From a virus: a DNA stretch of 56,750 bases. Within the stretch, counting starts at the first letter, position 1, and the number at the start of each line of letters is the position of its first letter. A program made the translations under genes and the position numbers. Below the pieces are notes generated by a model. It worked only from the letters and a program-made list of their open reading frames with translations, had not been told where the DNA came from and made no database searches. The stretch is from the IMG/VR virus record IMGVR_UViG_3300009100_000003, positions 1 to 56,750 of that record. One strand, given 5' to 3'. This document shows, one piece after another, positions 11,151 through 56,750 of this stretch.

Positions 11151-11437
11151 TGGGACGGCAACGTCACCGCGACGGAACATTCGCCGTCCAGCCGGACGCC
11201 CATCTCGGCCCCCGGCGCGCCGTGTCGCAGCCCGACATCGTCGCGATCCGGAGGCTCCGGACTGCCGGCTGGCGTCCGGAGGCCCTCGCTCGCGTCTACG
11301 GGGTGAGTGAGCGCACGATCTATCGCTACACGCGCCCGACGCTCGAGGTCGACCTGCGAGTCGGAGCGTGGATCGGGACGTTCAGCATTCGAGCCGGCCG
11401 GCCCCCGAAGCAGGTCGGTCAGTGGAGACCGGCATGA
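11150..11437 (+). CDS. Helix-turn-helix DNA-binding protein (95 aa)
   Basis: GTG 11150 overlaps the TAG stop. The HTH-like segment is IVAIRRLRTAGWRPEALARVYGVSERTIYRYTR. Confidence 0.6.
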   Translation: MGRQRHRDGTFAVQPDAHLGPRRAVSQPDIVAIRRLRTAGWRPEALARVYGVSERTIYRYTRPTLEVDLRVGAWIGTFSIRAGRPPKQVGQWRPA

Positions 11438-11799
11438 ACCTGACGCACGCTGTCCTCGCCGACGTCCTCGTCGAGCGCGAACGCCAAGAGTCAATCGGTC
11501 TCCGGAAGCGGGCGATCGGGATCGACTGGCGCTCCTGCGCCGATCCGGCGATGGCCGGCGGCGATGGGACGCGCTACATGGTCCTGGGCGAGGAGGTCGG
11601 GGAGGTCGCGAATGCCGTCCTCGAGGCGGGCTACACCGCGTCCGCGATTGCCGGGCCCGCGACGACAACCGCGTATCAGGTCGTCGAGTCGGGGGCGACT
11701 GGCGATGAGCACCTTCGCGACGAGCTCGTCCAGGTCGCCGCCGTCGCGGTCGCGTGGGTCGAGGCGATCGACGCGAGAAGCGGTAGGGTTCCGGCGTGA
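11434..11799 (+). CDS. MazG-like all-alpha NTP pyrophosphohydrolase (122 aa)
   Basis: ATGA overlap. Motifs: VERERQ...W, VLGEEVGEVANAVLE and LRDELVQVAAVAVAWVEAI. This is the EExGE / acidic-helix pattern of MazG-type enzymes. Confidence 0.6.
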   Translation: MNLTHAVLADVLVERERQESIGLRKRAIGIDWRSCADPAMAGGDGTRYMVLGEEVGEVANAVLEAGYTASAIAGPATTTAYQVVESGATGDEHLRDELVQVAAVAVAWVEAIDARSGRVPA

Positions 11800-25622: not shown

Positions 25623-26000
25623 GTGCCGTACATGGTCGATGCGACCCGCGTCCCGATCGACTTCAAGGCGCTCGACTCCGCCCACGTCGACGAGTGCGCG
25701 ACGCGGACGCGCTGCGGGATCTGCGGTGCTCGGATCCGGCGTGGACCGATCGCGTTCATCGGGCCGGCGGATGGTCGGACGTGCTTCGCCGATCCGTGGA
25801 TGCATCCCGAGTGCGCGACGCTGGCGCTCGAGCAGTGTCCGTTCCTCGCGGGCCGGCGCAACTGGCGCGAGGAGGAGGCGCGGACCGACGCGCTGCTCGC
25901 ACCGTACGATCGGATGGTCCGCATCCTCGCCGACAACTGGCGTTCGCACCGAGACGGGTTCGGGCGCTGGCACTTCGAGGCCATCGGCCAGATGCGATGA
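25623..26000 (+). CDS. Cys-rich hypothetical protein between TerS and TerL (125 aa)
   Basis: It contains CGICG...C...HPEC...C. ATGA overlap with the TerL start. Confidence 0.55.
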   Translation: MPYMVDATRVPIDFKALDSAHVDECATRTRCGICGARIRRGPIAFIGPADGRTCFADPWMHPECATLALEQCPFLAGRRNWREEEARTDALLAPYDRMVRILADNWRSHRDGFGRWHFEAIGQMR

Positions 26001-27442
26001 GCGCCGACCCGCTCGCCCTCGCCGCCGATCTCCTCGAGTCCGGGATCATCACCCGGCCGCGGGACTGGCATCCGCGCCATCACCAGGTGCCGCCTCCGGG
26101 CGACTGGGACACGTGGGCGCTCATCGGGGGCCGGGGCTGCGGCAAGACGGACGGCGGAGCGGCCTACGTCAAAGCGCACGTCGCGGGACCGGCGTGCCTC
26201 GCCGGCGCTCAGCCTCACCGGATCTCGATCATCGCCCCGACCCTCGGCGACGCGGTTGACGCGTGCGTCACGGGACCGTCGGGGATCAAGGCCCACGATC
26301 CCTCCGCGCGGATGGTCCAGGCGATCGGCGGGACGTACGTCCGGTGGCCGAACGGCTCGGAGGCCAAACTGTTCGGGGCGTTCACGCCCGAGGACGTCGA
26401 GCGATTCCGAGCAGGCGGTAACCGCTGCCTCGCATGGCTCGAGGAGTTCGCCGCGTGGCGGCTCATCGCCGAGGTCCTCGAGCAGATTGACTACGGTCTC
26501 CGACTGGGCCCGAAGCCGCGCAAGATCGTGACCTCGACCCCGAAGCCAAAGAAGGCGCTGCGGGCCCTGCTCGCCGACGAGGGGACGGTCCGGACCTTCA
26601 CGGAGGACGGCCGGATCCCGACGATGGATGACAACCCGGACCTGCCGCTCGCGGTGCGCGAGACGCTCATCCGCAAGTACGGCGGCACCCGCCTCGGCCG
26701 GCAGGAGCTCAAGGGCGAGATGCTCGAGGACACGCCGGGCGCCTACTGGTCGTGGGAGTCGATCGAGCGCAACCGCATCCCCGAGGGCGCGCCGCTGCCT
26801 GACTTCGGGCGGGTCGTCATCGCCGTCGATCCGGCGACGACGTCGACCGACGAGTCCGACGAGACCGGCATCATCTCGACCGCACGGGCGATCATCGAAG
26901 CGCATCCGATCCTGCGGCCCGAGATCGCGAACATGGACGTCATCCACCCCGACCGACCGCACGCCCATTACTACGTCCTCGACGACGCCTCGCTGCGCGG
27001 CAGCCCGCACGCCTGGTCAACCGAGGCGGTCCGGTTGTACGACCGCCGCTCCGGCGACGTGATCATCGGCGAGCAGAACAATGGCGGCGATATGGTCGAG
27101 TCCACCGTCCGGACCGTCCGGGCGAACCTGCCGTATCGCAAGGTGGTCGCGAGTCGCGGGAAGGACGTTCGGGCGGAGCCGATCTCGGGCCTGTACGAGC
27201 AGGATCTCGTCCATCACGTCGGCATCCTGCCCGAGCTCGAGGATCAGATGACCTCGTTCACCGGTCCCGGCTCGATCGAGCATGACGACCGGCTCGACGC
27301 CGCGGTCTACGGACTGACCGAGCTCAGCGCCTCCGGGGTTGCGGTCATGGCCGGGACAGTCCAACATGGGCGCGCCACTTCCCGGACGAGGACGACGCGT
27401 GCCTACACGAACCCGCGGGGCGAGGAGCCGGTCCGACACTGA
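25997..27442 (+). CDS. terL: Terminase large subunit
   Basis: Walker A is LIGGRGCGKT and the Walker B-like motif is CLAWLEEF. The nuclease half has VIAVDPATTS...DETGII and ...HDDRLDAAVYGL. ATG 25997 overlaps the upstream stop. Confidence 0.9.
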   Translation: MSADPLALAADLLESGIITRPRDWHPRHHQVPPPGDWDTWALIGGRGCGKTDGGAAYVKAHVAGPACLAGAQPHRISIIAPTLGDAVDACVTGPSGIKAHDPSARMVQAIGGTYVRWPNGSEAKLFGAFTPEDVERFRAGGNRCLAWLEEFAAWRLIAEVLEQIDYGLRLGPKPRKIVTSTPKPKKALRALLADEGTVRTFTEDGRIPTMDDNPDLPLAVRETLIRKYGGTRLGRQELKGEMLEDTPGAYWSWESIERNRIPEGAPLPDFGRVVIAVDPATTSTDESDETGIISTARAIIEAHPILRPEIANMDVIHPDRPHAHYYVLDDASLRGSPHAWSTEAVRLYDRRSGDVIIGEQNNGGDMVESTVRTVRANLPYRKVVASRGKDVRAEPISGLYEQDLVHHVGILPELEDQMTSFTGPGSIEHDDRLDAAVYGLTELSASGVAVMAGTVQHGRATSRTRTTRAYTNPRGEEPVRH

Positions 27443-27488
27443 CCCGACCGGCCACGAGGCACCGGCGACCTCGGCGCACTCGGTCAAG

Positions 27489-29015
27489 ATGCTCTCGTAC
27501 GTCCTCAAGGCCGAGGTCCCTGCCTCGCGCCAGATCCGGGACCCGTTCGAGGAGATCGCCGCCTACGCCGGCGGGCTGGCGATCGAGCCGCCTCTGGATC
27601 CGGAACGGCTGCTCATGCTCGCCGACGAGTCCGCTCCTCATGGTGCGTGTCTCGACGCGGTCGCCGATGACACCGTCGGCCGGGGCTGGACGCTCGAGCC
27701 CTCCCGTCAGACGCCGGGCACCGAGACGTCGGACGAGTCGGCCGCGACACCGTCAGGAACGGCAGACGAGAACATCGACGACACGAAACTCGCGGATGCG
27801 GTCGCGCAGCTGGACGAGGCGCTCGAGGCGATCACGCCCGACTACACGTTCGCCGAGCTCCTGTGGCAGGCCGAGTGGGAGCGCCGGGCGATCGGCTGGT
27901 CCGCTTGGGAGATGGTCAACGATCCCGGGGGCAAGCTCGGCGCGATCTACCCGGTCCCGGGGCAGACGCTCCGCTGCACGCCGGATCCGGACGTGTTCGT
28001 CCAGTGGCGCGGCGGCAAGGTCGTCTACTTCGCCCGGTTCGGCTCGGGCAAGCGGATCGACGCGCTCTCCGGCAAGGGCATCGATGGCAACGATGCCGGC
28101 CAGCGGCGCACCCGAAACGATCCGAAGGTCGAGAACCTCGCGACCGAGGTCCTCGTGTTCCGCGGCTACTCGTCGCGCTCGAAGTGGTATCCGATCCCGC
28201 GATGGGCGCCGGCCATCCCCGCGATCGCCGAGCTCACCGCGATCCGCGAATACAACGTCACCTGGTACGGCTCCGGCGGCGTCGTCGATCGGGTCATCCA
28301 TGCTCGTGCCGGCGACGGGCCCGCAGCGCAGAAGCTCGCCGACGACATCCTCGCGCAGCTGAACGAGGCGTCCGCGAACGGCGACGGGCACGTGACCATC
28401 GTCACCGGTGGCGATGAGAAGTCCGCGGTCGAAGCCGTGTTCCTCGCCCCGACCGTCGGCCGGCGTGATGGGCAGTTCGGCAACCGTCGGTCGGACCTCC
28501 TCGAGGAGGTCCTCATGGCGCACAAGGTCCCCGGCTACCGAATCGCCCGTGCCATCGTCGGCTCGCTCGGCGGAGCTCCGACCCGAGAGATGCTCCACTC
28601 GTACCGGACGGGCACGGTGGAGACCGATCAGAACCTCCTCGAGCATCGACTCAACGCGACCCTGTTCGGGCCGAAGGCGATCAAGCTCTCGGGCTATCGG
28701 TGGGTGCTCGTGGATCTCGACTGGGACGAGACCGAGCTCGACCTCAAGATCGCCTCGACCGCAGTCGAGCAGGGCATCGCGCAGCCGGCCGAGGGCCGCA
28801 CGATCCTCGGGCTGTCGCAGTCCGACGACCCGGCGCTCAAGGGGTTCTATTACAAGGGGCAGCCCCTCGGGCAGCCGCGGCCGGCCGCCCAGGCGACGCC
28901 CTTCGGAGCGGCGACCCGCGAGACCGCGCTGCTCAACGAGCTTCGGGTCGAGGTCCGCCGCCGGCTCGCCTCGCGGAGCAACGGGCACTCGACCGACCCT
29001 CTCCCCGTCGGCTAA
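27489..29015 (+). CDS. Portal protein
   Basis: It follows TerL. IEPPLDPERLLMLADESAPHGACLDAVADDTVGRGWTLEP resembles the N-terminal region of PBSX/HK97-type portals. The size is 508 aa. Confidence 0.85.
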   Translation: MLSYVLKAEVPASRQIRDPFEEIAAYAGGLAIEPPLDPERLLMLADESAPHGACLDAVADDTVGRGWTLEPSRQTPGTETSDESAATPSGTADENIDDTKLADAVAQLDEALEAITPDYTFAELLWQAEWERRAIGWSAWEMVNDPGGKLGAIYPVPGQTLRCTPDPDVFVQWRGGKVVYFARFGSGKRIDALSGKGIDGNDAGQRRTRNDPKVENLATEVLVFRGYSSRSKWYPIPRWAPAIPAIAELTAIREYNVTWYGSGGVVDRVIHARAGDGPAAQKLADDILAQLNEASANGDGHVTIVTGGDEKSAVEAVFLAPTVGRRDGQFGNRRSDLLEEVLMAHKVPGYRIARAIVGSLGGAPTREMLHSYRTGTVETDQNLLEHRLNATLFGPKAIKLSGYRWVLVDLDWDETELDLKIASTAVEQGIAQPAEGRTILGLSQSDDPALKGFYYKGQPLGQPRPAAQATPFGAATRETALLNELRVEVRRRLASRSNGHSTDPLPVG

Positions 29016-30587
29016 GTGGTCCGCACGGCCGCGCGCCGGCGTCCGCGGCCGGTCGCATACGCAGAGCCCGATCCCCTCTACGGACTCCTCGACGAGGACC
29101 TCGAGCTCCTCGACGCCGCGATCGAGGCCATCCTCAAGGCGCGCGCCCCGAAGCCTCCGGCCGGGACCGCAGAGCGATGGGAGCGCCCGATTCGCCGCGA
29201 GCTCCGCCGGCTCTCGGAGGACGTCGGCGACGCGATCGACGCGCTCGAAGTTCGGCGGTCGTGGTGGGTTCGCAAGGCCGACCCGTCGGACTTCTCGGTC
29301 AAGCCGGCAGTGTGGTCGCGATTCGAGCGCGAGCTCGGCGACGTGCTCGAGGAGATGTACGGCGCCGTCGGCGAGGCAGGATTCGCCGCGGTCGCGGGCG
29401 AACTGGGCATCGCTCTCGACTACGGCATCCGTCAGGAGATCGCCGACCCTGTCCTCGACGAGGTCGGCCGGCGGGTGACGATGATCTCCGACGCCTCGCG
29501 GAACGAGCTCGCGGATGCGGTCGGGACGGCGACGTCGCGCGGCTACTCGGTCGAGCAACTCGTCCGCGGCGTCGCCGGCGATGGGTTCTCGGGTCTCCGG
29601 CCGATGGTCGATCGCTGGCAGGCCATCGCCCCGGTCTCGACGTCGATCGATCGGGCGACGCTCATCGCCCGGACCGAGACCGCGAACGCGTACAACCTCG
29701 CGACGATGGACGCGTACCGGGCCTCGAACCTGGTCGCCGAGGTCAACGTGTTCGATGGCGGCAACTGCGGCTGGACGACGCACACCGATCCCGACCTCGC
29801 GAACGGATCCCGCCGGACACTCGACGAGGCACGGGCGCACCCGACAGCGCATCCCTCGTGCCAGAGGGCATTCGGGGCGATCGTTCGCGGGGCGCCGCCT
29901 CCGGGCTCGCCCTACGCGCAGCGAGTCACCCCGCCTCAGGTCGGGCCACGACCGACTGCGGATGCGCTCGAGCTCCGGGCGCGCGCGATCCAGGCGCGGG
30001 CGTTCTCATCGGCGGAGGCTGCCGAGAAGGCGGTCACGTCGACCCTGCGCGACCTCGAGACCCGGACCGGGGGAACCCTCGCGGGCCTGAACTTCCGGCT
30101 CAAGATCGACGGCGAGCGGACGGTCGAGAAGGTCCTCGGCGACGTCGCAGCTGGTGACCCGATCGAGCGCGCTAGGCAGGTCAAGGACGCGCTGCGGTAC
30201 ACGCTCATCTACCCGGAGGATCGGTTGTGGGCCGGCGCTCGCGCGGTCGAGGCGGAGCTCACCCGGCTCGGCTACTCGACGATCAAGTGGAAGCCGAACT
30301 GGACGAACCCGCTGTCGCGCGACCTCAACACCGCGTTCCGAGCTCCGAACGGGAGCCGGTTCGAACTGCAGTTCCACACCCCGACCTCGTTCGAGCGGAA
30401 GATGAACGGCGGGCCCGGCGGACAGCGCCCGTCGCACGAGATCTACACCGAGCTCCGGTCGCTGCCGCAGGATGCGGTGTCGGCTCGACGGTCACTCGAG
30501 GACGAGCTCCGAGCTCTGTGGGCCGACGTCCCGATCCCGGCCGGCGAACCGTACTTCGCCGAGATCGTCGAGGACCTACTGCCGTAG
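29016..30587 (+). CDS. MuF / SPP1 gp7-like head-morphogenesis protein with an extra ~190-aa C-terminal RelA/SpoT-like (toxSAS-like) domain
   Basis: MuF core: IARTETANAYNLATMDAY...VFDGGNCGW...HPSCQRAF. C-terminal domain from about nt 30000: RLKIDGERTVEKV, VKDALRYTLIYPED, SRFELQFHTPTSFERK and SHEIYTELR. Confidence 0.85.
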   Translation: MVRTAARRRPRPVAYAEPDPLYGLLDEDLELLDAAIEAILKARAPKPPAGTAERWERPIRRELRRLSEDVGDAIDALEVRRSWWVRKADPSDFSVKPAVWSRFERELGDVLEEMYGAVGEAGFAAVAGELGIALDYGIRQEIADPVLDEVGRRVTMISDASRNELADAVGTATSRGYSVEQLVRGVAGDGFSGLRPMVDRWQAIAPVSTSIDRATLIARTETANAYNLATMDAYRASNLVAEVNVFDGGNCGWTTHTDPDLANGSRRTLDEARAHPTAHPSCQRAFGAIVRGAPPPGSPYAQRVTPPQVGPRPTADALELRARAIQARAFSSAEAAEKAVTSTLRDLETRTGGTLAGLNFRLKIDGERTVEKVLGDVAAGDPIERARQVKDALRYTLIYPEDRLWAGARAVEAELTRLGYSTIKWKPNWTNPLSRDLNTAFRAPNGSRFELQFHTPTSFERKMNGGPGGQRPSHEIYTELRSLPQDAVSARRSLEDELRALWADVPIPAGEPYFAEIVEDLLP

Positions 30588-30824
30588 GGCGCGCTCGAGC
30601 TCCGCGGCCTGCTCGGGGGTGATCGGCGTCGCGTCGGTCACGCCGCCGGCGCCCGTGAAGTAGCCGGCACCTTCGGACGCGAAGATCCACTCGCCCGTGT
30701 CACGGTCGAGGACCTCGTAGCGCACACCTTCGGATCCGACGACTCGGCGGGCGAGGCCGTACACGAAGCCGCCGGACTCGAGCTCGGCATACCACGTGTC
30801 GGAGGGATTGATCCAGAGGGTCAT
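30576..30824 (-). CDS. Small protein (82 aa), convergent with the MuF gene and overlapping its 3' end by 12 nt. It is a candidate immunity or antitoxin protein.
   Basis: The product is MTLWINPSDTWYAELESGGFVYGLARRVVGSEGVRYEVLDRDTGEWIFASEGAGYFTGAGGVTDATPITPEQAAELERALRQ*. G+C at third codon positions is high. It is the last gene of the leftward operon. Confidence 0.65.
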   Translation of the reverse strand: MTLWINPSDTWYAELESGGFVYGLARRVVGSEGVRYEVLDRDTGEWIFASEGAGYFTGAGGVTDATPITPEQAAELERALRQ

Positions 30825-30826
30825 GA

Positions 30827-31642
30827 TCAGGACTCCTGCCCGGCTGGCGCCGCCGAGCGCGCGTGCAGGATCGACGCCAACCGGAGCCGATAGCGTACCC
30901 CGTCGATGCGACGCCACGCGTCCCGGTTCGCCAGCGGGACCAGCACGCACGGACTCATGAGATACCAGCGCGGCAGCGCGAGGAGGACGACGATCGGCAT
31001 CGTCCAGGGCCGTCCGGTCAGGGCGCCCCACGCGAGGAGCGGGACCGCGATCCCGAGCCGGAGCACGAGCCACGACGGGGTGACCGGATCGAAGTCATGC
31101 AGGAACGCCGGGTAGGCGAGCCACGCCTGCGGAGCGATCGCGAACGAGATCCCGACGATCGCTGCAGTGGCACCGAGCCCGATCGCGAGCTTGCGCCACT
31201 CGCCCCGGAACGCGTGCCACAGGATCCCGATCCCGACCGAGGACTTCGAGATGAACGCGAACGCCCACGTGCCGGGGTAGCGAATGCCGTACCAGGCGGC
31301 GGCAGTGAGCGCGATGTTCACGTTCCCTGCGTTGATATCCGAGGCGACCGGGCTGAGCACGAACACGAGCGGCAGGAGCGGCCCGACGAGCGCGTACAGG
31401 GCGACGAGCTCGACCGCTCGAACGATTGCGACGAACGCCTCGAACGGGAGCCCGAGGAGCGGGCTGATCAGCTGCGCGAACGCTGGCGTGTAGACGTACG
31501 CCGCGCTCGAGCGGATGACGTACGGGTCATCGGGCACGACCGTCCAGTAGGCGATCGCGTCGACCGGCGATCCGCCTCCGAGCCACACGAGCCATACGGT
31601 GACGGCGAACGCGATCGCGAACGCCCGCGCGGCTAGGGCCAT
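30827..31642 (-). CDS. Polytopic membrane protein (about 8 TM), possibly a GT-C-type (DUF2029/GT87-like) glycosyltransferase
   Basis: 271 aa from ATG 31642, with hydrophobic helices throughout. AAYVYTPAFAQLISPLLGLPFEAF resembles the Y.Y(P/T)P..A...P motif of DUF2029 enzymes. The function is tentative. Confidence 0.7.
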   Translation of the reverse strand: MALAARAFAIAFAVTVWLVWLGGGSPVDAIAYWTVVPDDPYVIRSSAAYVYTPAFAQLISPLLGLPFEAFVAIVRAVELVALYALVGPLLPLVFVLSPVASDINAGNVNIALTAAAWYGIRYPGTWAFAFISKSSVGIGILWHAFRGEWRKLAIGLGATAAIVGISFAIAPQAWLAYPAFLHDFDPVTPSWLVLRLGIAVPLLAWGALTGRPWTMPIVVLLALPRWYLMSPCVLVPLANRDAWRRIDGVRYRLRLASILHARSAAPAGQES

Positions 31643-31747
31643 CGGACGATCTCGGGGCGGAACCACCAGCGCCAGTGACCGTTACGGTGGACCTCGTGCG
31701 CCACGCGAGCGGTGCAGCGGCGACCGGCGAACCGATCGCCGCAGCGG

Positions 31748-31855
31748 CTAGCCACAGGGGCCTCCGTTGATCGTCGCCACGAGCAGCGCGGCGGCGAGCA
31801 GCACGGCCGCGAGCCCGATCGACCCGATCCACACGAGATCGACGAGGTCGCTCAT
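31748..31855 (-). CDS. Small single-pass membrane protein (35 aa)
   Basis: The product is MSDLVDLVWIGSIGLAAVLLAAALLVATINGGPCG*. ATGA overlap with the upstream gene. It is below the ORF-track cutoff. Confidence 0.4.
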   Translation of the reverse strand: MSDLVDLVWIGSIGLAAVLLAAALLVATINGGPCG

Positions 31856-32157
31856 TCGTCCCCTCCCTTCGCGGTGATCTGCTGGACGAGCGGGTTTGAG
31901 ACGCCGGCCGCAGTCGCGATCGTCCGGAGCGGGATGTCGAGTGCCCGGGCTGCGCGGATCGCGTAGTCGCGCTCGGCCCGTCGGGCGTCGAGGGCTGCCT
32001 TTGCAGCCGCATACGCCTCGCCTCGAACCTGGACCCGGCGAAGCGCCGTGTCCGTGTCGAGGGTGGGCGCGAGATGACTCGGGTCCTGTCCGAGTCCCTG
32101 AACCTTGCGGGCCATCTCGGCGGGCCAGCCGGTCCACGGGTCACGCGTCGTCGTCAT
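31852..32157 (-). CDS. Helix-turn-helix protein (101 aa)
   Basis: ATG 32157. The C-terminal ARALDIPLRTIATAAGVSNPLVQQI is HTH-like. Confidence 0.6.
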   Translation of the reverse strand: MTTTRDPWTGWPAEMARKVQGLGQDPSHLAPTLDTDTALRRVQVRGEAYAAAKAALDARRAERDYAIRAARALDIPLRTIATAAGVSNPLVQQITAKGGDE

Positions 32158-32435
32158 CGTCCGTACTCCTCGGTGAGGACGCCCGGGGGCTGCCCGAGCG
32201 TCGTGCGGTTGAGCGCGTAGGCGCCATCGGAGAGCCGGCGCGCGATGGGTGCGGGCCCGTACCCCCACGGGTCCCGGAAGTCGTCCGCGAGATGCTCGCC
32301 GCAGCGCGGCTCATCGGATGCGAGGTCGACCGCGATCGATGGCGAACCGCAGGTCTCGTGGTCGTACGAGTCGAACACCCGCCACGACCAGGTGTAGCGG
32401 CAGGCGCCGCCGGTGAGCTCCTCGAGGGGGATCAT
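32154..32435 (-). CDS. Hypothetical protein (93 aa)
   Basis: ATGA overlaps at both ends. The sequence begins MIPLEELTGGACRYTWSWRVFDSYDHETCG... Confidence 0.55.
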   Translation of the reverse strand: MIPLEELTGGACRYTWSWRVFDSYDHETCGSPSIAVDLASDEPRCGEHLADDFRDPWGYGPAPIARRLSDGAYALNRTTLGQPPGVLTEEYGR

Positions 32436-32707
32436 CGGTCGGCCTTGCCATCGGTCCCGACGAACCACGGGGTTTCGCGGTCGTCACTCTCGAAGTATTC
32501 GGGCGCGTCGGCCGTCCGCTCCCACAGGAACCCGTACCGGATCCCGCCCGTGTGCCAGCCGGTCGCGGGGTCGCGAGCCTCGTTGACCGCCCGCGTCGCC
32601 TCGTCGACGGACGGGAAGTACCCGAGCTCGCGCTCCCGATCGGCAGCCTCACCCTCGGAGTCGTGGTAGAGGACCGCCTCGTACACCGGGCGGTTGCGCC
32701 GCTTCAC
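32432..32707 (-). CDS. Hypothetical protein (91 aa)
   Basis: GTG 32707 overlaps the upstream stop (GTGA). The sequence begins VKRRNRPVYEAVLYHDSEGEAADRERELGYFPSVDEATRAV... Confidence 0.5.
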   Translation of the reverse strand: MKRRNRPVYEAVLYHDSEGEAADRERELGYFPSVDEATRAVNEARDPATGWHTGGIRYGFLWERTADAPEYFESDDRETPWFVGTDGKADR

Positions 32708-33015
32708 GGCGTCCACCGTGGGTAGAGGCAGAGCGCGTAGCCGGCCCACGGCTCGGCGTACACGCCAGCTGCGCGACCGACCGCGTCCGTGTTGATCGCG
32801 ACCGCCCAGTCGGAGAACATCGACGACTCGAGGAGGATCGTCGGTGTCGGGACGCCGGGCCACGTCCACGCCATGTTGAGCTCGGGCCCGTCGCCGTGGT
32901 AGGCGGCATCCGGTCCGGTCGGGACCTTCGCCCCGGTCCGATACACGCGCCGGATCTCGAGCGCGACTGCGGCGAGGGCCTTGTCGGCCTGGGCCTTTGT
33001 GACCTTCCGGGCCAT
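32704..33015 (-). CDS. Hypothetical protein (103 aa)
   Basis: ATG 33015 follows GGGAGGCAGCTGAG. The composition is protein-like. Confidence 0.6.
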   Translation of the reverse strand: MARKVTKAQADKALAAVALEIRRVYRTGAKVPTGPDAAYHGDGPELNMAWTWPGVPTPTILLESSMFSDWAVAINTDAVGRAAGVYAEPWAGYALCLYPRWTP

Positions 33016-33016
33016 C

Positions 33017-33631
33017 TCAGCTGCCTCCCTTCACGCCGTAGGGGAGATGGTCATTGACGAACACGTAGCTCGCGAGGAAGTGGACGAGCAGCGCCCGCGG
33101 ATGCGTCCGCGAGAAACTGAACGCCGGATCTGAGCCGCGCGACCCGAGCGTCCCGGACGAGTCGCCGAGGGTCGCCGTCCCGTCGGGGTTCAGCCACGAG
33201 GAGACCGAGTAGCCGAGGTCGATCATCCCGTCGAACCGGCGACCCGAGAAGCCCGCGAGGGCGTCCTTCACGTCGCGGCTCCGAGGAGCGCCGGCCTTGA
33301 GGACCGGAGCCCACCGACCGTCCCGGTGATCGACGTCCGCGTAGTTCGTGACGACAGGCCCGTAGGGCTTGTCATCGGAGTCGACCCGGGTCCAGGCGTT
33401 CGTGACCGTCCCGTCGTACCACACGTTGACCGACGCGCCGCCGGAGTACGAGTCCGACCGGACGTAGAACTTCGTGCCGGGGAACCGCGCTGCGAGGGTG
33501 GACCGGACGAGCGCGGCGGTGTCCGCCCATCCGACGTAATAGATCGGCGACCCGGCCCGATCACTCGGGGTCGAGGCCGCGACCTTCGCATAGACCGGAT
33601 GGTCTCGCGAAGGGGCCGAAGTGAGGGTCAT
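33017..33631 (-). CDS. LPD29-like protein, a type found on plasmids and ICEs (204 aa)
   Basis: LVRSTLAARFPGTKFYVRSDSYSGGASVNVWYDGTV resembles the hallmark '..FPg.KFsVrs..ysGG.Si.V.W.DGp' of large-polyvalent-protein-associated domain 29. It is the first gene behind the promoter at 33683-33710. Confidence 0.65.
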   Translation of the reverse strand: MTLTSAPSRDHPVYAKVAASTPSDRAGSPIYYVGWADTAALVRSTLAARFPGTKFYVRSDSYSGGASVNVWYDGTVTNAWTRVDSDDKPYGPVVTNYADVDHRDGRWAPVLKAGAPRSRDVKDALAGFSGRRFDGMIDLGYSVSSWLNPDGTATLGDSSGTLGSRGSDPAFSFSRTHPRALLVHFLASYVFVNDHLPYGVKGGS

Positions 33632-33637
33632 CCCTGA

Positions 33638-33652
33638 CCTCCGTACCTGCGG
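33638..33652 (-). promoter_or_regulatory. Leader motif CCGCAGGTACGGAGG (minus strand)
   Basis: 6 nt upstream of the start at 33631. Confidence 0.6.
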
Positions 33653-33682
33653 GGCCCGTCAGAGCGGCGGGCGCATCTAGAG

Positions 33683-33710
33683 TGTATAGCACCTTAGCAC
33701 CGGTCGTCAA
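33683..33710 (-). promoter_or_regulatory. Leftward promoter TTGACG-N16-TATACA with an extended -10 (TGC)
   Basis: The minus strand reads TTGACGACCGGTGCTAAGGTGCTATACA. It is near-identical to the elements at 34771-34798 and 37683-37710. Confidence 0.7.
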
Positions 33711-33724
33711 GTCGGCCGATGGTC

Positions 33725-34339
33725 CTACCGAGGGCAGACGAGGATCGAGGGAACGTGCTTGTGCGGCGTGTGATCGGCCGTCCGATGGTGGCACTTGTAG
33801 CAGACGTCCGGATCCCGGCGGCTCGCGTGAAACCAGGTGGCCGGCGGATGCTCGATGAGCTTGAGCCGGGCCTTGAGCCGGCCGATGTTGCCGCCGAGGT
33901 TCGAGAGTTCGTAGCCCGCGTGCGGGACCGCGATCGACCTCGCGTACGGGGTCAGTGCCGCGAGCTCGGCGCGGTGGGCCTTGCGGTAGGCGGCGTTCGC
34001 AGCTGCCATCGCGGCCCGCTTCGCCTCGAGCTCGGCGATCCGCTCCCGGAGCCGCTCGGCGGCGTCGGGATCGTCGGAGTAGATCGCCCGATCTGCGGCC
34101 GCTTCGATGCTCGCGGCTCGAGCCGCCATCGCGTCGGCCTTGTCCAGGCTGCGGAATGCCCGATCCTCGCGGGCGATCAGGCGGGCCCGCTCCGGGATAT
34201 GCCCGGGCTGCGTGTTGAACGCGTGGTCGTCGTGGTAGGGAGCGCCGAGCGCGAGGTCCGCATTCGCGCGGGCCACTCGCCGGCCGGCCCAGTCCCGGAG
34301 CCGTTCGGCTCGGGCAAGGCGCCGTTCGCGGTAGGTCAT
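33725..34339 (-). CDS. DUF3560-like protein (204 aa)
   Basis: The true start is MTYRERRLARAERLRDWAGRRVA... at 34339. Helical repeats are followed by a Cys/His C-terminus (CYKCHHRTADH). This N-terminal signature is typical of DUF3560 proteins of plasmids and actinophages. Confidence 0.65.
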   Translation of the reverse strand: MTYRERRLARAERLRDWAGRRVARANADLALGAPYHDDHAFNTQPGHIPERARLIAREDRAFRSLDKADAMAARAASIEAAADRAIYSDDPDAAERLRERIAELEAKRAAMAAANAAYRKAHRAELAALTPYARSIAVPHAGYELSNLGGNIGRLKARLKLIEHPPATWFHASRRDPDVCYKCHHRTADHTPHKHVPSILVCPR

Positions 34340-34728
34340 GCCGTGCCTCCTGTACCTGCGGTGAGCAGAGCGGGGACCGCGCTGCCGGGGCCGAGAGCGG
34401 CGGGTCGGACGTAGAACGTGACGCCCACGTCCACGCCGCAGAAGTAGGAATGGACGGCGAGGATCGTCCCCGCCGGGACGTCGACCGGGTCGGCCGCGCC
34501 GCGCGCCCAGGGGGACGGCACGACGAGCTTGCCGATGCGGCCGTTCGCGACGTCGACGAGGACGACATCGTCCTTCGTCCCGCCCGACCACGAGAGGTCG
34601 AGATGGAGAGGACGATCGCCCCACGCGACCGCGGAGAGCTTGCGCCCTCGGTAGTCCGGGAAGGTCGCGGCGAGGAGCCGCTTCACTCCGGGGTCCGAGC
34701 GGCGGAGCGGGCGAGAGAGAGGGGACAT
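34336..34728 (-). CDS. Hypothetical protein (130 aa)
   Basis: ATG 34728 lies 4 nt after the leader motif. ATGA overlap with the DUF3560-like gene. Confidence 0.6.
   Translation of the reverse strand: MSPLSRPLRRSDPGVKRLLAATFPDYRGRKLSAVAWGDRPLHLDLSWSGGTKDDVVLVDVANGRIGKLVVPSPWARGAADPVDVPAGTILAVHSYFCGVDVGVTFYVRPAALGPGSAVPALLTAGTGGTA
34346..34361 (-). promoter_or_regulatory. Leader motif CCGCAGGTACAGGAGG (minus strand), inside the upstream gene's 3' end
   Basis: 6 nt upstream of the start at 34339. Confidence 0.55.
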
Positions 34729-34732
34729 GGCG

Positions 34733-34748
34733 CCTCCGTTACCTGCGG
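34733..34748 (-). promoter_or_regulatory. Leader motif CCGCAGGTAACGGAGG (minus strand)
   Basis: 4 nt upstream of the start at 34728. Confidence 0.6.
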
Positions 34749-34770
34749 AGCCCGTGTCGGGCAACTAGAG

Positions 34771-34798
34771 TGTATAGCAGCTTAGCGGCCGACGTCAA
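34771..34798 (-). promoter_or_regulatory. Leftward promoter TTGACG-N16-TATACA with an extended -10
   Basis: The minus strand reads TTGACGTCGGCCGCTAAGCTGCTATACA. The transcript then forms the hairpin GCCCGacaCGGGC before the leader motif. Confidence 0.7.
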
Positions 34799-35266
34799 GC
34801 ACGAAGATCGCGCGACCAGCGGATCCGAGGCTCGTCGGGGAGGGCGCGATCGCCCCACAGGTTCGCGTCGTACCGAGGTCGGCCGGCGCTCGCCCACGAC
34901 GCGCGCGCCTGGAGGCGCTCCTCGAGGACGAACCCGGCGGCGCGGAGCGAGGCGCCTGACTCCGAGGCGAGGGTGTACGTGATCGCTCTCCGGTAGCCGA
35001 GCGCGGCGGCTGCCCGACAGATCGCCCCGTACAGGCGCGAGCTCGCGTTGCGCTGCTCGAGCGTGCAGACGCGGGTGATCTCGATCGTCGAGCGATCCGC
35101 AGCGAGGACGCGCGAGCCTGGTCGGCCGGCGACCGCGAACACCGACGAGCTCGCCGTCGAGTTCGAGCCCGACGCCGAATCGCCAGCCGCGTGGCGGGAG
35201 GTTGTGGCGATGGTGGGCCGCGACGAAAGCGCGGGCCTCGGCGAGGTCGATCGCGCGGAGGTTCAT
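34795..35266 (-). CDS. GNAT-like (XF1762-type) protein, split between two frames at about 35140-35146. The length of 472 nt is not a multiple of 3.
   Basis: Frame A gives MNLRAIDLAEARAFVAAHHRHNLPPRGWRFGVGLELDGELVG. Frame B gives VFAVAGRPGSRVLAADRSTIEITRVCTLEQRNASSRLYGAICRAAAALGYRRAITYTLASESGASLRAAGF... Joined, they read as one domain. Confidence 0.6.
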
Positions 35267-36589
35267 TCGTCCTCGACCGTCTCGAGGAGATCCAGCGCCC
35301 GGAGCCCGACGACGTAGGCAACCTTCGGCACGACCGCGTTGCCCAACTGCTGCAGGCGATGTTTCCGTCGGGTGACGCCCTTCGCGAGCCGGGGCACGCG
35401 AGGCGACGGATCGGGCGGCCACGGCTCGCCCTCGAGCCACTCCGGCGCGGCGACCTCGAGATCAGTCCAGCCGATCGGGAAGCCCATAAGCCACTCCACC
35501 CAATCGGGGCTCAGCGGGCCGGTCGCGTGCTCCGCCTCCTGAACGGTCGCGTCGAGGTAATGCTTGTCCACCCGGTACTCGTGGGACTTCGATCCGAGCG
35601 GGCCTGTCCCCTTCCACTCGGACGCTCGAGGGGTCGGCCAGATCGACGGCGGCGTCGCCAGCGCGGGCTGCGAGACCGCCTCCTCCGGGAACCGCTGCTC
35701 GACGACTGTCCGGAGGTTCTTGCCGTGCCGGACACGCGCGAGCTCGGGCCCCGCATCGCCGTCCCCGGCGCGAGGGGTCGGGTACGTCTGCGCCGCCCGG
35801 CCGAGCGGGCTCGAGTGACCGTCCGGTCCGGTGCCGTGCGGTGTCGGCCAGTTGCCGTACCGCGACTCGTTCACCTTCGCCTGCAGCCCGTCGGGCCGAC
35901 CGTGCGACGAGCGCGCCCCGCCATCGCCATCCGTGACGAGCGGTGTCGGCCACGTCCCCTTGCGGGCCATCGTCTCGAGGCTCGGCCGCTTCCGGCTCCG
36001 CGTGTTCGACCCGGTGCCGTTGCCCGACGAGCCGTAGGCAGCTGCGCTCGGCGTCGGGAAGGGCGCCCGATGGATCGGGTCAGGATCCTCCGGCTCGACG
36101 TCGCCGAACCCCGAGGACGAAGATCCGGTTGCGTAGGTGCGGAGCACCGACGTCGAGCGCGGCGAGTCGATCCCGTTCCGCGTCGTACCCGAGGGCGACC
36201 AGGTCCCCGAGAACGTCTCCGAGCCCGTATCGAAGAAGCCCCGGGACATTTTCCACGAGCACGAGTCGGGGTCGTAATGCAGCGATGACGTCTGCGAACG
36301 CCGGCCAGAGCCACCGCGGGTCCGCCTGGGCAAGTTGGCGTCCGGCGACGCTGACGGGCTGGCAGGGGAACCCGCCGGCAATGAGGTCGACCCGTTCGAG
36401 CTCGGCGAGGGGGAGGGTCCGGACGTCGCCGTAGCGGGTGACGTCGGGCCATCGATGCTCGAGGACCCGGACCGCTTCGGGGTCGTACTCGACCTGCCAG
36501 CGAGGCTGCCAGCCGGCGCGTTCGAGTCCGAGATCGATGCCGCCGATCCCGGCGAATAGCGAACCGTACGTCGGTGCGTCATCGCGCAT
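35263..36589 (-). CDS. dcm: C5-cytosine DNA methyltransferase, split between two frames at a C4/G4 run (36109-36112). The length of 1327 nt is not a multiple of 3.
   Basis: The N-terminal frame has motif I LFAGIGG, motif IV GGFPCQPVS, and also VLVENV and HLRNRIFVLG. The C-terminal frame has a repeated WPTP target-recognition region and motif X QLGNAVVP. ATGA overlap with the GNAT-like gene. Confidence 0.8.
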
Positions 36590-36812
36590 GGCCGGAGCCG
36601 AGCGCGCGCGGCGTGACGTCCTTCGCGTTCGGCGGTGCCACGAGGTAGTCCTCGAGGGCGCCGCCCGCACCGAGGTAGCCCGGCCATCGCGGGTCGCTCG
36701 GGTCCGGGATGGGCAGTTCGCACTTGCAGTCGGGGTCGCCACAGAAGCCCGTCCAGGGCCCGTCGCCTGTCTGATGGCCGTCGACCGGATGTCCGCACGT
36801 GCAACGGTTCAT
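36579..36812 (-). CDS. Cys-rich small protein (77 aa)
   Basis: ATG 36812 follows GAGAGGAGCGAGCTC. The sequence begins MNRCTCGHPVDGH...FCGDPDCKC. Confidence 0.55.
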   Translation of the reverse strand: MNRCTCGHPVDGHQTGDGPWTGFCGDPDCKCELPIPDPSDPRWPGYLGAGGALEDYLVAPPNAKDVTPRALGSGHAR

Positions 36813-36922
36813 GAGCTCGCTCCTCTCAGTAGCCGACGAATGTACGCGTCGGCGATCGCGCGGCAGAGCCGACAGCGGGTGACGGCGCCGCCCCCGTGGG
36901 CGGGGAGATCATGACGAGTCAT
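36809..36922 (-). CDS. Very small ORF (37 aa) linked by ATGA overlaps at both ends
   Basis: The product is MTRHDLPAHGGGAVTRCRLCRAIADAYIRRLLRGASS*. Only the coupling geometry supports it. Confidence 0.3.
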   Translation of the reverse strand: MTRHDLPAHGGGAVTRCRLCRAIADAYIRRLLRGASS

Positions 36923-37134
36923 GCCGCCACCGACCATCCGGCCGGAGCGGGCCCGTCCGGATCCGTCCGGCGAAGTTTCGCGAGAGCGGCGGGATCAGTG
37001 ATCGGCCGCAGGTCCCGAGGCCGGGACTTCCGGCCAGCGAGCGCCCGGTCGATCGCGTTGAGGTCAGAGCGCCGCAGCGGCGGCCGCGCGGGGCCGAGCT
37101 TGAGCGCGTGAGTCCGGATGATGATCAGGCCCAT
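36919..37134 (-). CDS. Hypothetical basic protein (71 aa)
   Basis: ATG 37134 lies 5 nt after GGAGG. G+C at third codon positions is high. Confidence 0.45.
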   Translation of the reverse strand: MGLIIIRTHALKLGPARPPLRRSDLNAIDRALAGRKSRPRDLRPITDPAALAKLRRTDPDGPAPAGWSVAA

Positions 37135-37370
37135 GTCAGCCTCCGTGGTGAGTGGTAGATCGCGAGCGCGGCGCTCGCGGCGGCGTCGGTCGAGTACCGG
37201 CCGACGAGGATGAAGTCGTCGCAGTCCGGAGCGCGGGCGACCGCGACGTAGTCCGCGCCATCGATGACGGTCATGCTGACCGCCGCTCGATCACCGGCGA
37301 GGAACCCGCGAACGCGGTCCGCGAGATCCGCCGGGAGGGGCGGAAGATCGGGAGCCGGGAGAGGGGCCAT
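37125..37370 (-). CDS. Hypothetical protein (81 aa)
   Basis: ATG 37370 lies 4 nt after GGAGGCGCT. Coding-looking sequence starts at MAPLPAPDLPP... Confidence 0.5.
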   Translation of the reverse strand: MAPLPAPDLPPLPADLADRVRGFLAGDRAAVSMTVIDGADYVAVARAPDCDDFILVGRYSTDAAASAALAIYHSPRRLTWA

Positions 37371-37381
37371 AGCGCCTCCGT

Positions 37382-37621
37382 TCAGTGATCGTGGCCGGGC
37401 AGCGCGCACCGCGGGCCCGGAACGAAGTCAGGGATGCCGGCGAGGACCGGCGAGTGGCGACCGCCACCGAGCCAACCGTCGGCGTGGTAGAGCCACCCGT
37501 GATCGTGAGTCGCAGCGCCGCCGTGGGGCGGCCAGCCGGTCCGCACGACGGGCACGCCGCACGCGTCACACGGCCCGAGGACCGGAACGCCTCGAGCGGC
37601 GAGTCGGTCGAGAAGCGTCAT
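37382..37621 (-). CDS. Cys/His-rich small protein (79 aa), first gene of the leftward block
   Basis: ATG 37621 lies 5 nt after the leader motif. The sequence contains CDACG...H.H...H...C..PGHDH. Confidence 0.6.
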   Translation of the reverse strand: MTLLDRLAARGVPVLGPCDACGVPVVRTGWPPHGGAATHDHGWLYHADGWLGGGRHSPVLAGIPDFVPGPRCALPGHDH

Positions 37622-37642: not shown

Positions 37643-37682
37643 AAGGGGCGGAGCCGAGGAGCGGGACCGCCTCCGTGGTAAG

Positions 37683-37710
37683 TGTATAGCACCTTAGCGC
37701 CGAGTGTCAA
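37683..37710 (-). promoter_or_regulatory. Leftward promoter TTGACA-N16-TATACA with an extended -10
   Basis: The minus strand reads TTGACACTCGGCGCTAAGGTGCTATACA. This is the best consensus match of the family. Confidence 0.7.
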
Positions 37711-37777: not shown

Positions 37778-39298
37778 ATGACGGTCGCGGTACAGGAGCC
37801 CGAGGCGGGCCTCGTCCGGCGGATCTTCCGCCAGGTCGTCCGCTCTCTCGTCGCGAAGCAGCGCAATGACACCGGCGTCATGGTCGCCCTGTTCCTGCCG
37901 CCCGACGTCGCGGCCGAGCTCGCGGTCCCCGGCGGCGAGCCGGCGAACGTCTTGCACTTGACGCTCCGCATCTTCGCCGACGATGCCGCGCAGGTCCCGA
38001 TCGAGAAGCTCGACAAGTGGGCCGCAGAGATCGAGCAGGTCGCGAAGCGGACGCCGGTCCTGTCGGGTCGGATCTCCGGAGTCGGGCGGTTCAACGGCGA
38101 CCAGGCTGGCGGCGAGGACGTCGTGTACGCGACGATCGACCTGCCCGGACTCGAGCAGCTGCGCGATCAGGTGCGATGGTGCGGCGACTACCGCGAGCTC
38201 GGGGAGTCCGACGAGCCGGAGCACGGGTTCAGCCCGCACGTCACGCTCGCGTACGGCAACGATGTCGAGCTCCCCGAAGTCCCGACCGTCCCGGTTCGGA
38301 TCGATCGCCTGAGCCTCGCGATCGGGAACGAGCGACGCGACTACATGTTCGCCGGCGCCGCGACTGCGCCGGTCGCGGTCACGCAGCACAAGGCCCAGTG
38401 GTCCGCGGCGTTCATCAACGATCTCCCCGACTCCTCGTTCCTCTACATCGAAGCCGGCGGCGAGAAGGACGGCGACGGGCGGACGACGCCGCGATCGCTG
38501 CGCCACTTCCCGGTCAAGGGCCCCGATGGCGCGGTCGACCTGCCGCACGTCCGGAACGCCCTCGCGCGGATCCCGCAGTCGAAACTGCCGGCCGACGTCC
38601 AGGCAGCTGCCGAGCGCAAGGCCCGCGCGATGCTCGAGGCCGCGACCGAGAAGGCATCGGTCGAGCGGTCCGAGGCGGTCGTCGCCACGCTCGGCGAGCT
38701 CGGGTGGGAGGGCAAGGTCGAGGTCGAGCCGGTCGGCGTGTCGGAGGACGGCTCCGCGTTGATCTGGAAGGCCGACCGCGAGGAGGGTCCGGGGCTCATC
38801 CTCGTCGATGACGGGGCCTCGATCCTCGAGCTCTCCGCGTGGGTCGAGCGCGCCTCGGTCCCTGCCCTCGAGCCGGTCGAGCAGTTCGCGGTGATCAAGT
38901 CCGAGGGTGACCTCCGCTACACCCTCGGCGTCGCGTATCCGGCCCGGCGGACGACGAAGGCGACCGACTCGAAGGACGTCGACGCGCACAAGGACTACAT
39001 GACGCCCGAGGAGCTCGAGAAGGCAGCGTGGGCGTACCTCCGCGACCGGACGACCGTCCGCGCCTCCGGAGGCTCGACCGGTGTCGGGACGATGCACGAG
39101 GACGGGACCGACGGCGCCGGCGACGTCGTCGAGTCGTATATCTACCGCGGCCCGACGTGGAAGGTCGCCGACCAGGTCGTCGAGGCCGGCGATTGGCTCC
39201 TCGGCGTCGTGTGGGACGAGCCGACGTGGGCGCGCATCCAGTCAGGCGACCTGACCGGATATTCGATGCAGGGCTACGCGGCACGCGAGCCCGGGTAA
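37778..39298 (+). CDS. Fusion protein with an N-terminal 2H phosphoesterase (LigT-like), a middle conserved phage domain and a C-terminal XkdF-like putative prohead protease domain
   Basis: Two HxTx motifs: HLTL (37955-37966) and HVTL (38237-38248), 94 residues apart and preceded by VMVALFLPP. The middle part is WSAAFINDLPDSSFLYIE...RHFPV...LPHVRNALARI. The C-terminus, YTLGVAYPA...EELEKAAWAYL...MHEDG...VVESYIY...W..GVVWDE..W..I..G.LTGYSMQG, is XkdF/S78_2-like. Confidence 0.8.
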   Translation: MTVAVQEPEAGLVRRIFRQVVRSLVAKQRNDTGVMVALFLPPDVAAELAVPGGEPANVLHLTLRIFADDAAQVPIEKLDKWAAEIEQVAKRTPVLSGRISGVGRFNGDQAGGEDVVYATIDLPGLEQLRDQVRWCGDYRELGESDEPEHGFSPHVTLAYGNDVELPEVPTVPVRIDRLSLAIGNERRDYMFAGAATAPVAVTQHKAQWSAAFINDLPDSSFLYIEAGGEKDGDGRTTPRSLRHFPVKGPDGAVDLPHVRNALARIPQSKLPADVQAAAERKARAMLEAATEKASVERSEAVVATLGELGWEGKVEVEPVGVSEDGSALIWKADREEGPGLILVDDGASILELSAWVERASVPALEPVEQFAVIKSEGDLRYTLGVAYPARRTTKATDSKDVDAHKDYMTPEELEKAAWAYLRDRTTVRASGGSTGVGTMHEDGTDGAGDVVESYIYRGPTWKVADQVVEAGDWLLGVVWDEPTWARIQSGDLTGYSMQGYAAREPG

Positions 39299-56232: not shown

Positions 56233-56678
56233 CGCTCAACCTCGGCGGCTACGTCACCGAGCTCACGTTCGACTCGGTCGATCTGCAGCCCGACGACCAC
56301 TCGTACGTCCTCTGGATCGCCCGCGGGCTGCAGGGTGCGCCGACGGTGCGTGGGTCCGACACGATCGTTCCGCACGCACCCGGGCGGGTTGCGCGCTCCC
56401 GCCAGGCCGACACGCTGCGGATCGAGCTCGACGGCCGGATCTTCGCCTCGACGCCGGCGGGGTTTCAGACGACGCGGACGCTGCTCATGGCGCTATTCGA
56501 CGGCGTCGCGGAACCGCGGCTCCTGTCGTGCCTCCTCGAGGACGGCGCCACGACGGCCGAGATCTACGCTCGCCCGATCCCGCCGCATCTCATCGACGAG
56601 GCCGTCCCGAGCTACCTCGCGCGCCTGAGCATCGCGCTCGAGAGCGTCGACCCGTACTGGACACTGGGCGGCTCCTGA
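56229..56678 (+). CDS. Distal tail protein (Dit-like siphovirus tail component)
   Basis: ATGA overlap with the tape measure. It is 149 aa, and its position is typical of Dit. Confidence 0.7.
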   Translation: MTLNLGGYVTELTFDSVDLQPDDHSYVLWIARGLQGAPTVRGSDTIVPHAPGRVARSRQADTLRIELDGRIFASTPAGFQTTRTLLMALFDGVAEPRLLSCLLEDGATTAEIYARPIPPHLIDEAVPSYLARLSIALESVDPYWTLGGS

Positions 56679-56750
56679 CCCGTGGCGGTGTCGATCGTCT
56701 ACCAAGAGAACCTCTCGGGCAGCGTCGGCAATCTGACGTGGGGCACTCCG
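56628..56750. repeat. Terminal direct repeat, right copy, identical to 1-123
   Basis: Same 123-nt string as the window start. The unique genome length is therefore 56,627 bp. Confidence 0.95.
56682..56750 (+). CDS. 5' end of the tail-fibre gene as seen across the circular junction. It duplicates 55-123.
   Basis: GTG 56682 lies 4 nt after the Dit stop and encodes MAVSIVYQENLSGSVGNLTWG... Confidence 0.5.
   Translation, partial: MAVSIVYQENLSGSVGNLTWGTP

Follow-up and report, generated by a model that had tools for sequence, protein, structure and literature searches.

Apk2 is an adenosine 3'-pyrophosphokinase fused to a MuF head protein of phages and is accompanied by IapK/Tis1-like and Aph1 immunity proteins (PMC10083569, PMC12226406; Bartoli et al. 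2023, J Mol Biol, cited there). Prophages carrying Apk2 have been described in Bacteroides caccae, Streptococcus pneumoniae SPNA45, Mannheimia haemolytica, and Pasteurella multocida (PMC10083569, PMC12226406), and the published MuF cluster is mainly from Streptococcus (PMC12691689). In the known Apk2 phages, an iapK gene of 69 to 72 amino acids (aa) lies 3' of the toxin gene on the same strand, usually followed by the HD-hydrolase gene aph1, whose product, a (p)ppApp hydrolase, is the second and variably present immunity protein of these systems. What part MuF-fused toxins play in phages, including packaging, injection, and benefit, is still open (PMC10083569). Here, we analyzed the IMG/VR virus record IMGVR_UViG_3300009100_000003 (positions 1 to 56,750, hereafter the window), in which a gene for a 523-aa MuF fusion protein meets a convergent gene for an 82-aa protein. 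This locus is probably an Apk2-type phage polymorphic toxin with an IapK/Tis1-type immunity gene and, read in this way, the pair is the already published Apk2/IapK system (PMC10083569, PMC12226406, PMC12691689) and not a new kind. New here are the carrier, an apparently integrase-less siphovirus with a guanine plus cytosine (GC) content of 70% across the window, the convergent, overlapping, and apparently separately promoted immunity gene, and the lack of Aph1.

The two genes and the parts of the larger protein are as follows.

29016 to 30587, plus strand: apk2-like gene, 523-aa MuF head protein with a predicted alarmone-synthetase toxin domain (open reading frame (ORF) and gene calls)
29016 to 29888, plus strand: MuF/SPP1-gp7-like head-morphogenesis domain (approximately residues 1 to 291)
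29889 to 29963, plus strand: proline-rich flexible linker RGAPPPGSPYAQRVTPPQVGPRPTA (approximately residues 292 to 316; AlphaFold2 predicted local distance difference test score (pLDDT) 45 to 68)
29964 to 30587, plus strand: predicted small-alarmone-synthetase toxin domain, RelA/SpoT homolog (RSH) SYNTH type (residues 317 to 523)
30576 to 30824, minus strand: iapK-like gene for a predicted immunity protein of 82 aa; convergent to the toxin gene, with a 12-nucleotide (nt) 3' overlap

A predicted alarmone synthetase fused to a phage head protein

Searching the Protein Data Bank (PDB) with phmmer matched the C-terminal domain to 8VX3, the exported alarmone synthetase SaEAS (E 1.3e-12). Foldseek, using an AlphaFold2 model in which the synthetase domain has a pLDDT above 90, likewise placed 8VX3 at the top (E 3.5e-10, TM score 0.71 to 0.74), followed by Tas1/Apk1 (6OX6_A, E 1.1e-6) and then by RelQ, RelP, Rel, and SpoT, with CapRel found only at rank 30 (E 6.4e-3, TM score 0.26). 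A preliminary description of the locus, made from the nucleotide sequence alone, had proposed a RelA/SpoT-like C-terminal domain; similarity at this level is far beyond chance and, as the Foldseek and profile comparisons suggested there gave clear RSH matches, an objection from lack of such similarity fails. By tblastn, the domain matched 47 phage records, and the alignments to Apk2 of the Mannheimia and S. pneumoniae phages (3e-16 and 7e-12, respectively) showed 30 to 36% identity. Further profile matches were to phrog_7625 and to the NCBIfam XopAD C terminus (2.8e-20). Separately, an unverified and unannotated record labeled Inoviridae ('Ralstonia phage YO188_1', ON170320; locus L015) holds a 1239-aa ORF (83 to 3802) with two tandem synthetase domains, which resembles XopAD-type type III effectors and not a phage head protein.

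The active site was mapped through the phmmer alignment to SaEAS, whose residues D121, R124, K154, N169, E182, and Q184 correspond to D391, R394, K424, N438, E450, and Q452, so that six of six are kept; by this mapping, D391 is the catalytic residue and the other five belong to the ATP site. The 8VX3 crystal is that of the SaEAS D121A mutant and fits the alignment cleanly in its numbering; the six SaEAS residues are those named in PMC12691689. Across 33 homologs, D391, R394, E450, and Q452 are invariant, as are the lysines of an RLK...K motif formed by R361, K363, and K372, and N438 is nearly so (at least 90%). Given that all SaEAS active-site residues are retained, the domain looks catalytically competent, and the C-terminal ~200 residues are predicted, from sequence and structural model together, to be a catalytically intact small alarmone synthetase.

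Terminase, portal, and MuF fusion genes follow one another in the window, and both the 523-aa and the 82-aa genes were called identically and independently in three public assemblies of the same genome. The 523-aa ORF has the signature of high-GC coding sequence (GC of 0.72, 0.52, and 0.88 at codon positions 1, 2, and 3), and its six close full-length homologs, every one of them metagenomic, share 43 to 62% identity with it. The MuF core noted in the preliminary description was confirmed by matches to PHROG head-morphogenesis families (phrog_2468, 3.4e-10; phrog_37388, 2.5e-18; also phrog_3517 and phrog_758), by Foldseek matches of the AlphaFold2 model in BFVD (minor capsid and head morphogenesis proteins), and by its position after the portal gene. 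Pfam PF04233 (E 0.031) stayed under its cutoff and TIGR01641 (E 0.037) was also subthreshold; the distant homologs P0010 and P0011 do carry PF04233. In the AlphaFold2 model, the linker separates two confidently modeled domains. The motifs that had been quoted for the protein (IARTETANAYN, NCGW, HPSCQRAF, RLKIDGERTVEKV, VKDALRYTLIYPED, SRFELQFHTPTSFERK, and SHEIYTELR) are all present in the translation.

The syn2 motif of the 523-aa protein is RYT, the signature of adenosine 3'-pyrophosphokinases. At the acceptor site, syn3 reads D-L-N-T (30321 to 30332, residues 436 to 439) and takes the form [R/H/K]-D-x-N-T in five of six close relatives, the sixth (P0007) giving no match to the search pattern; Apk2, SaEAS, and most other homologs have G-x-N there, making the G-to-D change specific to this clade. 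Because the subfamily carries [G/D]xN at the position of the usual nGYxSlH motif, the missing GY already noticed in the preliminary description is explained. At syn4, the protein has FH, which it shares with the dual-specificity SaEAS (FELQFHT-type), where Apk2 has YH. The syn3 change appears to fall in the pocket believed to recognize the acceptor base, and the product could be one other than (p)ppApp.

An enzyme whose substrate differs from that of Apk2, acting either on (p)ppGpp synthesis only, like VpEAS and AaEAS, or on tRNA 3' ends, like FaRel2 and CapRel, is unlikely, if not strongly so. The broad family includes (p)ppGpp-only and dual-specificity enzymes (PMC12691689), both acceptor-side motifs of the clade (the conserved syn3 aspartate and FH in syn4) depart from Apk2, and CapRel is among the fold matches. 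Motif swaps in Apk2 neither switched nor predicted its specificity (PMC12226406), and especially for this reason the product cannot be fixed from sequence. Set against this, the nearest relatives in both sequence and structure (SaEAS, Apk1, and Apk2) all make (p)ppApp, RYT is present in syn2, the putative partner is of the IapK/Tis1 type that accompanies Apk toxins, and the match to CapRel is weak. The preliminary description had left nucleotides and tRNA side by side as targets of pyrophosphorylation; in light of these nearest relatives, nucleotides are favored and tRNA is not, CapRel being just a distant fold match.

The convergent gene is a predicted member of the IapK/Tis1 family

The convergent 82-aa ORF is a real gene. 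Both ORFs sit at the coordinates first given for them and their 12-nt 3' overlap is real, spanning 30576 to 30587: the plus-strand gene ends in CTA CTG CCG TAG at 30587, and the stop codon of the minus-strand gene is the reverse complement of CTA at 30576 to 30578. GC at codon positions 1, 2, and 3 of the 82-aa ORF is 0.67, 0.52, and 0.88, and that of its in-frame upstream extension (30825 to 31073) is 0.90, 0.71, and 0.57; since the extension lacks the coding signature, the ATG at 30824 is taken as the start. A GGAG precedes this ATG, and the stop codon of the preceding minus-strand gene, a GT87-like gene, lies 2 nt before it, a spacing that, together with the GGAG, makes the 82-aa gene the last in a minus-strand operon. 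No terminator-like hairpin was found at the convergent junction.

A search of 5.8 billion proteins with the 82-aa protein returned one homolog only. In the related loci, drawn from the contigs of the six close MuF-synthetase homologs and the contig of this sole 82-aa homolog, the family was found in seven of eight, on the minus strand, at most 783 nt from the toxin 3' end and with 37 to 68% identity. The iapK-like gene overlaps or abuts the toxin gene in five of them and lies one or two genes off in L007 and L010. The inserts of these two loci (L007, 7604 to 8418, encoding 184 aa and 87 aa; L010, 6476 to 6949, encoding 157 aa) are unrelated genes. As alternative partners, the 184-aa neighbor in L007, the 157-aa neighbor in L010, and a 93-aa neighbor in L009 were rejected, fitting neither of the small-protein families.

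For a wider survey, the 1.8 kb past each toxin stop codon was translated in six frames in 80 viral contigs with the synthetase domain, giving 87 loci and 2001 segments. Seeded with the 82-aa protein, jackhmmer recovered 67 segments, all but three of which start within 150 nt of a toxin stop codon, and the set includes the ORFs at the iapK position, directly 3' of Apk2, in S. pneumoniae phages (3e-11) and a Mannheimia phage (1.3e-5); 20 shuffled queries returned zero matches. In the reciprocal search from IapK, 55 of 58 matches were adjacent to a toxin gene, against a background of 513 of 2001 segments (26%). Alignment of the window clade by HHalign to an IapK family of 37 sequences, built with the window clade excluded, gave a probability of 96.3% (E 1.6e-9, score 48.5 over 54 columns), compared with a shuffled null score of 8.2 +/- 1.6 and a null maximum of 13.4. 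Small same-strand genes beside distant MuF-synthetase genes in L022 and L023 (74 aa in the latter) match both families, and a common pattern, [YW][YF]...R...E.[YW]....W....G....[EP]I[TS].E.A, is visible by eye in both. These comparisons point to the 82-aa ORF as an IapK/Tis1-family homolog, a predicted member of a family of small proteins that neutralize Apk-type toxins. By this homology and its adjacency, it is the best candidate for the neutralizing partner that had been proposed at the outset.

An IapK hidden Markov model (HMM) found no match in six-frame translations of the window, Pfam, PHROG, and NCBIfam gave none for the 82-aa ORF, Pfam gave none for the 37 IapK-like sequences, and tblastn with the 82-aa ORF against phages was also without a match. 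Against a profile of seven IapK sequences, the 82-aa protein alone ranked seventh of 74 window proteins, and the question of IapK membership was settled only by the enlarged family profile. A PDB sequence search with the profile of the 82-aa family gave chance matches only, and one with canonical IapK did not reach Tis1 either. A Kelch-repeat PDB match of the broad family profile was rejected as an artefact in which the short motif YNPxxxxW was summed over six blades; positions 28 to 47 of the IapK-like alignment A7 hold a conserved E-x-Y-N/D-P-x-x-x-x-W that mimics the Kelch blade motif and misleads PDB searches.

Several observations weigh against assigning the locus to the Apk2/IapK type. 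Its convergent orientation is unlike that of every tested Apk2 system, other genes separate toxin and iapK in L007 and L010, and L009, the relative that diverges most, keeps the catalytic residues of the synthetase and has no iapK-like gene within its contig. The reciprocal IapK search reached the window clade marginally (E 0.0016 to 0.0098), with the window's own ORF not below 0.01, and a first comparison of seven-sequence profiles gave a probability of 4.6%, a score reached by 1 of 600 column shuffles (top 0.2%). Foldseek with the AlphaFold2 model of the 82-aa protein, a beta-sheet with a C-terminal helix (pLDDT 75) built from a two-sequence alignment, gave no significant PDB match, Tis1 included. 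The product is uncertain given DxN in syn3 and FH in syn4. Finally, MuF toxins have been described as a feature of temperate phages, and this phage is without a detected integrase or prophage relatives.

Part of this evidence would suit a toxin assigned as above next to an 82-aa ORF that is just an accessory, syntenic member of the minus-strand block, with immunity coming from elsewhere or being unneeded in a lytic cycle. The location in a different, convergent operon, the genes intervening in L007 and L010, the gene not found on the L009 contig, the empty Pfam, PHROG, NCBIfam, and Foldseek searches, and the seventh rank against the small IapK profile all lean this way. We nevertheless consider it very unlikely, because the HHalign score lies far above the shuffled maximum, the iterated matches fall almost entirely on ORFs abutting toxin stop codons in either orientation, bridging sequences such as the 74-aa gene of L023 fit both families, and convergent IapK-like genes recur in the unrelated low-GC loci L027, L038/39, L054, L077, and L098. 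We find it barely credible that the head protein carries its C-terminal domain as a mere degenerate or structural extension, devoid of catalytic function; although full-length Apk2 was less toxic than its isolated domain in published work (PMC10083569), the invariant catalytic and ATP-site residues, the confidently predicted fold, and the immunity-family gene retained alongside all speak against it.

Layout of the predicted immunity gene and its operon

Of the 87 loci, 41 have the IapK-like gene on the toxin strand, 15 of these also carrying Aph1; in another 15 it is convergent, with Aph1 in none of them, and in 31 it went undetected. The convergent layout, 15 of the 56 detected immunity genes, is shared by the window clade with several lower-GC contigs unrelated to it. 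Neither the six-frame translations of the window nor the close relatives gave a match to the Aph1 HMM.

In the window, the gene closes a minus-strand block, the features of which are given below.

30576 to 37621, minus strand: block of ~17 genes over ~7 kb with iapK last (gene calls, analysis of GC at third codon positions by frame, Pfam, and PHROG)
30827 to 31666, minus strand: GT87-like polytopic membrane glycosyltransferase (Pfam GT87, E 5.8e-6, 26.7 bits, cutoff 25)
31852 to 32157, minus strand: helix-turn-helix protein
33017 to 33631, minus strand: LPD29
33681 to 33710, minus strand: promoter-like 30-mer TTGACG-N18-TACACT, the nearest upstream of the operon ending in iapK
33725 to 34339, minus strand: DUF3560
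34769 to 34798, minus strand: second copy of the promoter-like 30-mer
34795 to 35142, minus strand: Mom-like protein
35263 to 36249, minus strand: DNA-methyltransferase-like protein
37681 to 37710, minus strand: third copy of this 30-mer, with the sequence TTGACA-N18-TACACT, heading the block

The block splits the head module, with the MuF gene on one side and the prohead-protease gene on the other, and L007 and L008 have the same block layout with different gene content. The GT87-like gene lies immediately upstream of iapK in the same operon, and gene callers put its start at 31642. When the relatives were examined, only this genome had it at the iapK-adjacent position; it has the look of an accessory gene acquired by insertion and gives a hint of an actinobacterial host. 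The three near-identical 30-mers, TTGAC[GA]nCGGnGCTAAGnTGCTATACACT, occur on the minus strand and only in the block, where 0.05 would be expected, and have sigma-70-like -35 and -10 elements with an 18-nt spacer. A search for the 30-mer in related phages did not find it. The immunity gene appears not to be co-transcribed with the toxin, closing instead a separate minus-strand operon; because this operon has its own repeated, host-type promoter-like elements, supply of the antidote is probably controlled apart from the late head genes.

The phage genome

The first ~120 nt of the window recur at 56628 to 56750, and these repeated ends indicate that the contig closes on itself as a complete circular genome of ~56.6 kb. 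In keeping with this, a 1878-aa tail-fiber-like ORF at 111 to 5747 continues from the tail genes at the opposite end of the window. The gene set is of the siphovirus type, with a large terminase, portal, major capsid-like protein, major tail protein, and tape measure, and other phage genes encode RecET-like recombination proteins, a DnaQ-like exonuclease, a HerA-like ATPase, and methyltransferases. Those directly preceding the toxin gene are as follows.

~25997 to 27442: terminase gene, just before the portal and MuF genes
27399 to 29015: portal gene, directly before the 523-aa MuF ORF

No tRNA genes were found in the window, and no integrase or repressor was recognized among the window ORFs scanned, the scans not covering every small ORF. 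Close relatives of the phage were absent from 185,579 species genomes, as were prophage relatives, and a megablast with 20 kb of the window against GenBank phages gave no match. With neither a close relative in these genomes nor an integrase, a non-temperate carrier is possible. The genome comes from soil metagenome samples, and the host of the phage is probably actinobacterial.

Beyond the minus-strand block, the plus-strand gene at 37778 to 39298 encodes a prohead protease (Peptidase_S78_2, C-terminal) fused to an N-terminal 2H phosphoesterase (2',5'-RNA-ligase/LigT-like) domain that keeps both HxTx motifs (HLTL at approximately residues 60 to 63 and HVTL at approximately residues 154 to 157). 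This fusion would be a second enzyme domain on a head-internal protein, besides the MuF-synthetase. In L008, a 2H-protease fusion also adjoins the MuF-synthetase gene, and in L022 a 2H domain is found in a 1426-aa neighbor.

A MazG-like NTP pyrophosphohydrolase had also been suggested as a possible counterweight to the toxin product, but this identification was not upheld. The plus-strand ORF concerned (11434 to 11799) had no Pfam (E<=0.1), PDB, or phage tblastn match and only weak, spurious ones in NCBIfam; it matches only phrog_2831, a family of unknown function. By eye, its EEVGE and DELVQ helices may recall all-alpha NTP pyrophosphatases.

Proposed mechanism and comparison with known systems

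By analogy with Apk2, Apk1/Tas1, and SaEAS, the synthetase domain would use ATP to pyrophosphorylate the 3'-OH of adenine nucleotides and perhaps of guanine nucleotides as well. As in characterized relatives, (p)ppApp, and possibly (p)ppGpp, would be made, draining ATP and arresting growth. The 82-aa protein would bind the synthetase and block its acceptor site, as its relatives do, protecting the cell while virions are built. Following the biology of SPP1 gp7 (PMC10083569), a few copies of the MuF fusion may be packaged at the portal and may exit the capsid with the DNA. More speculatively, expression of the antidote from the minus-strand promoters may be timed separately. One scenario for an apparently non-temperate phage, which we regard as quite unlikely, takes this further: with the antidote in a leftward operon under three host-type promoter-like elements, uncoupled from the late-made, packaged toxin, ejected toxin would give a short, self-limited alarmone burst that shuts down the host, and early IapK would quench the burst and shield infected cells against the toxin of superinfecting relatives.

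If correctly assigned, the locus adds to the carriers of the Apk2/IapK module a siphovirus with high GC, a probably actinobacterial host, and apparently no integrase. It suggests that the immunity gene can sit tail-to-tail with the toxin in a separately promoted operon without Aph1, an arrangement recurring in several unrelated lineages. Toxin and antidote expression would here be genetically separated, so that the time at which either is needed could be studied in a natural system.

Among described systems, the toxic small alarmone synthetases FaRel/FaRel2 and CapRel share the use of an RSH synthetase fold as a growth-arresting toxin with a cognate neutralizer. They differ in being chromosomal or prophage toxin-antitoxin and defense modules, some acting on tRNA, with no capsid-targeting domain, and their similarity to the protein studied here is distant. 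The Apk1/Tas1-Tis1 pair of the Pseudomonas aeruginosa type VI secretion system (6OX6) has the same synthetase fold and follows the same logic, joining a delivery domain to a (p)ppApp synthetase that a small immunity protein counters by occluding the active site. Its delivery, however, is by PAAR through the secretion system rather than by MuF and the capsid, and the 82-aa protein has no detected direct similarity to Tis1. SaEAS, the exported alarmone synthetase of Streptomyces albidoflavus (8VX3; PMC12691689), is the best match in sequence and structure and has the same active-site residues and FELQFHT-type syn4. Unlike the phage protein, which is fused to a head protein and has an immunity-family neighbor, SaEAS is Sec-exported and stand-alone, lacks an immunity gene, and produces (p)ppApp as well as (p)ppGpp. 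Compared with Apk2 systems, in which IapK is ~70 aa and its gene shares strand and operon with the toxin gene, the predicted immunity protein here is 82 aa and encoded convergently, with the 12-nt overlap, in a separate operon; Aph1 was not found, syn3 is DxN rather than GxN and syn4 FH rather than YH, and the 70% GC genome is from a soil metagenome and without a detected integrase or prophage relatives. What is shared with Apk2 systems is the order of terminase, portal, and MuF fusion genes, the two-domain architecture, the homologous synthetase domain with RYT in syn2, and a predicted homologous small immunity-family gene abutting the toxin stop codon.

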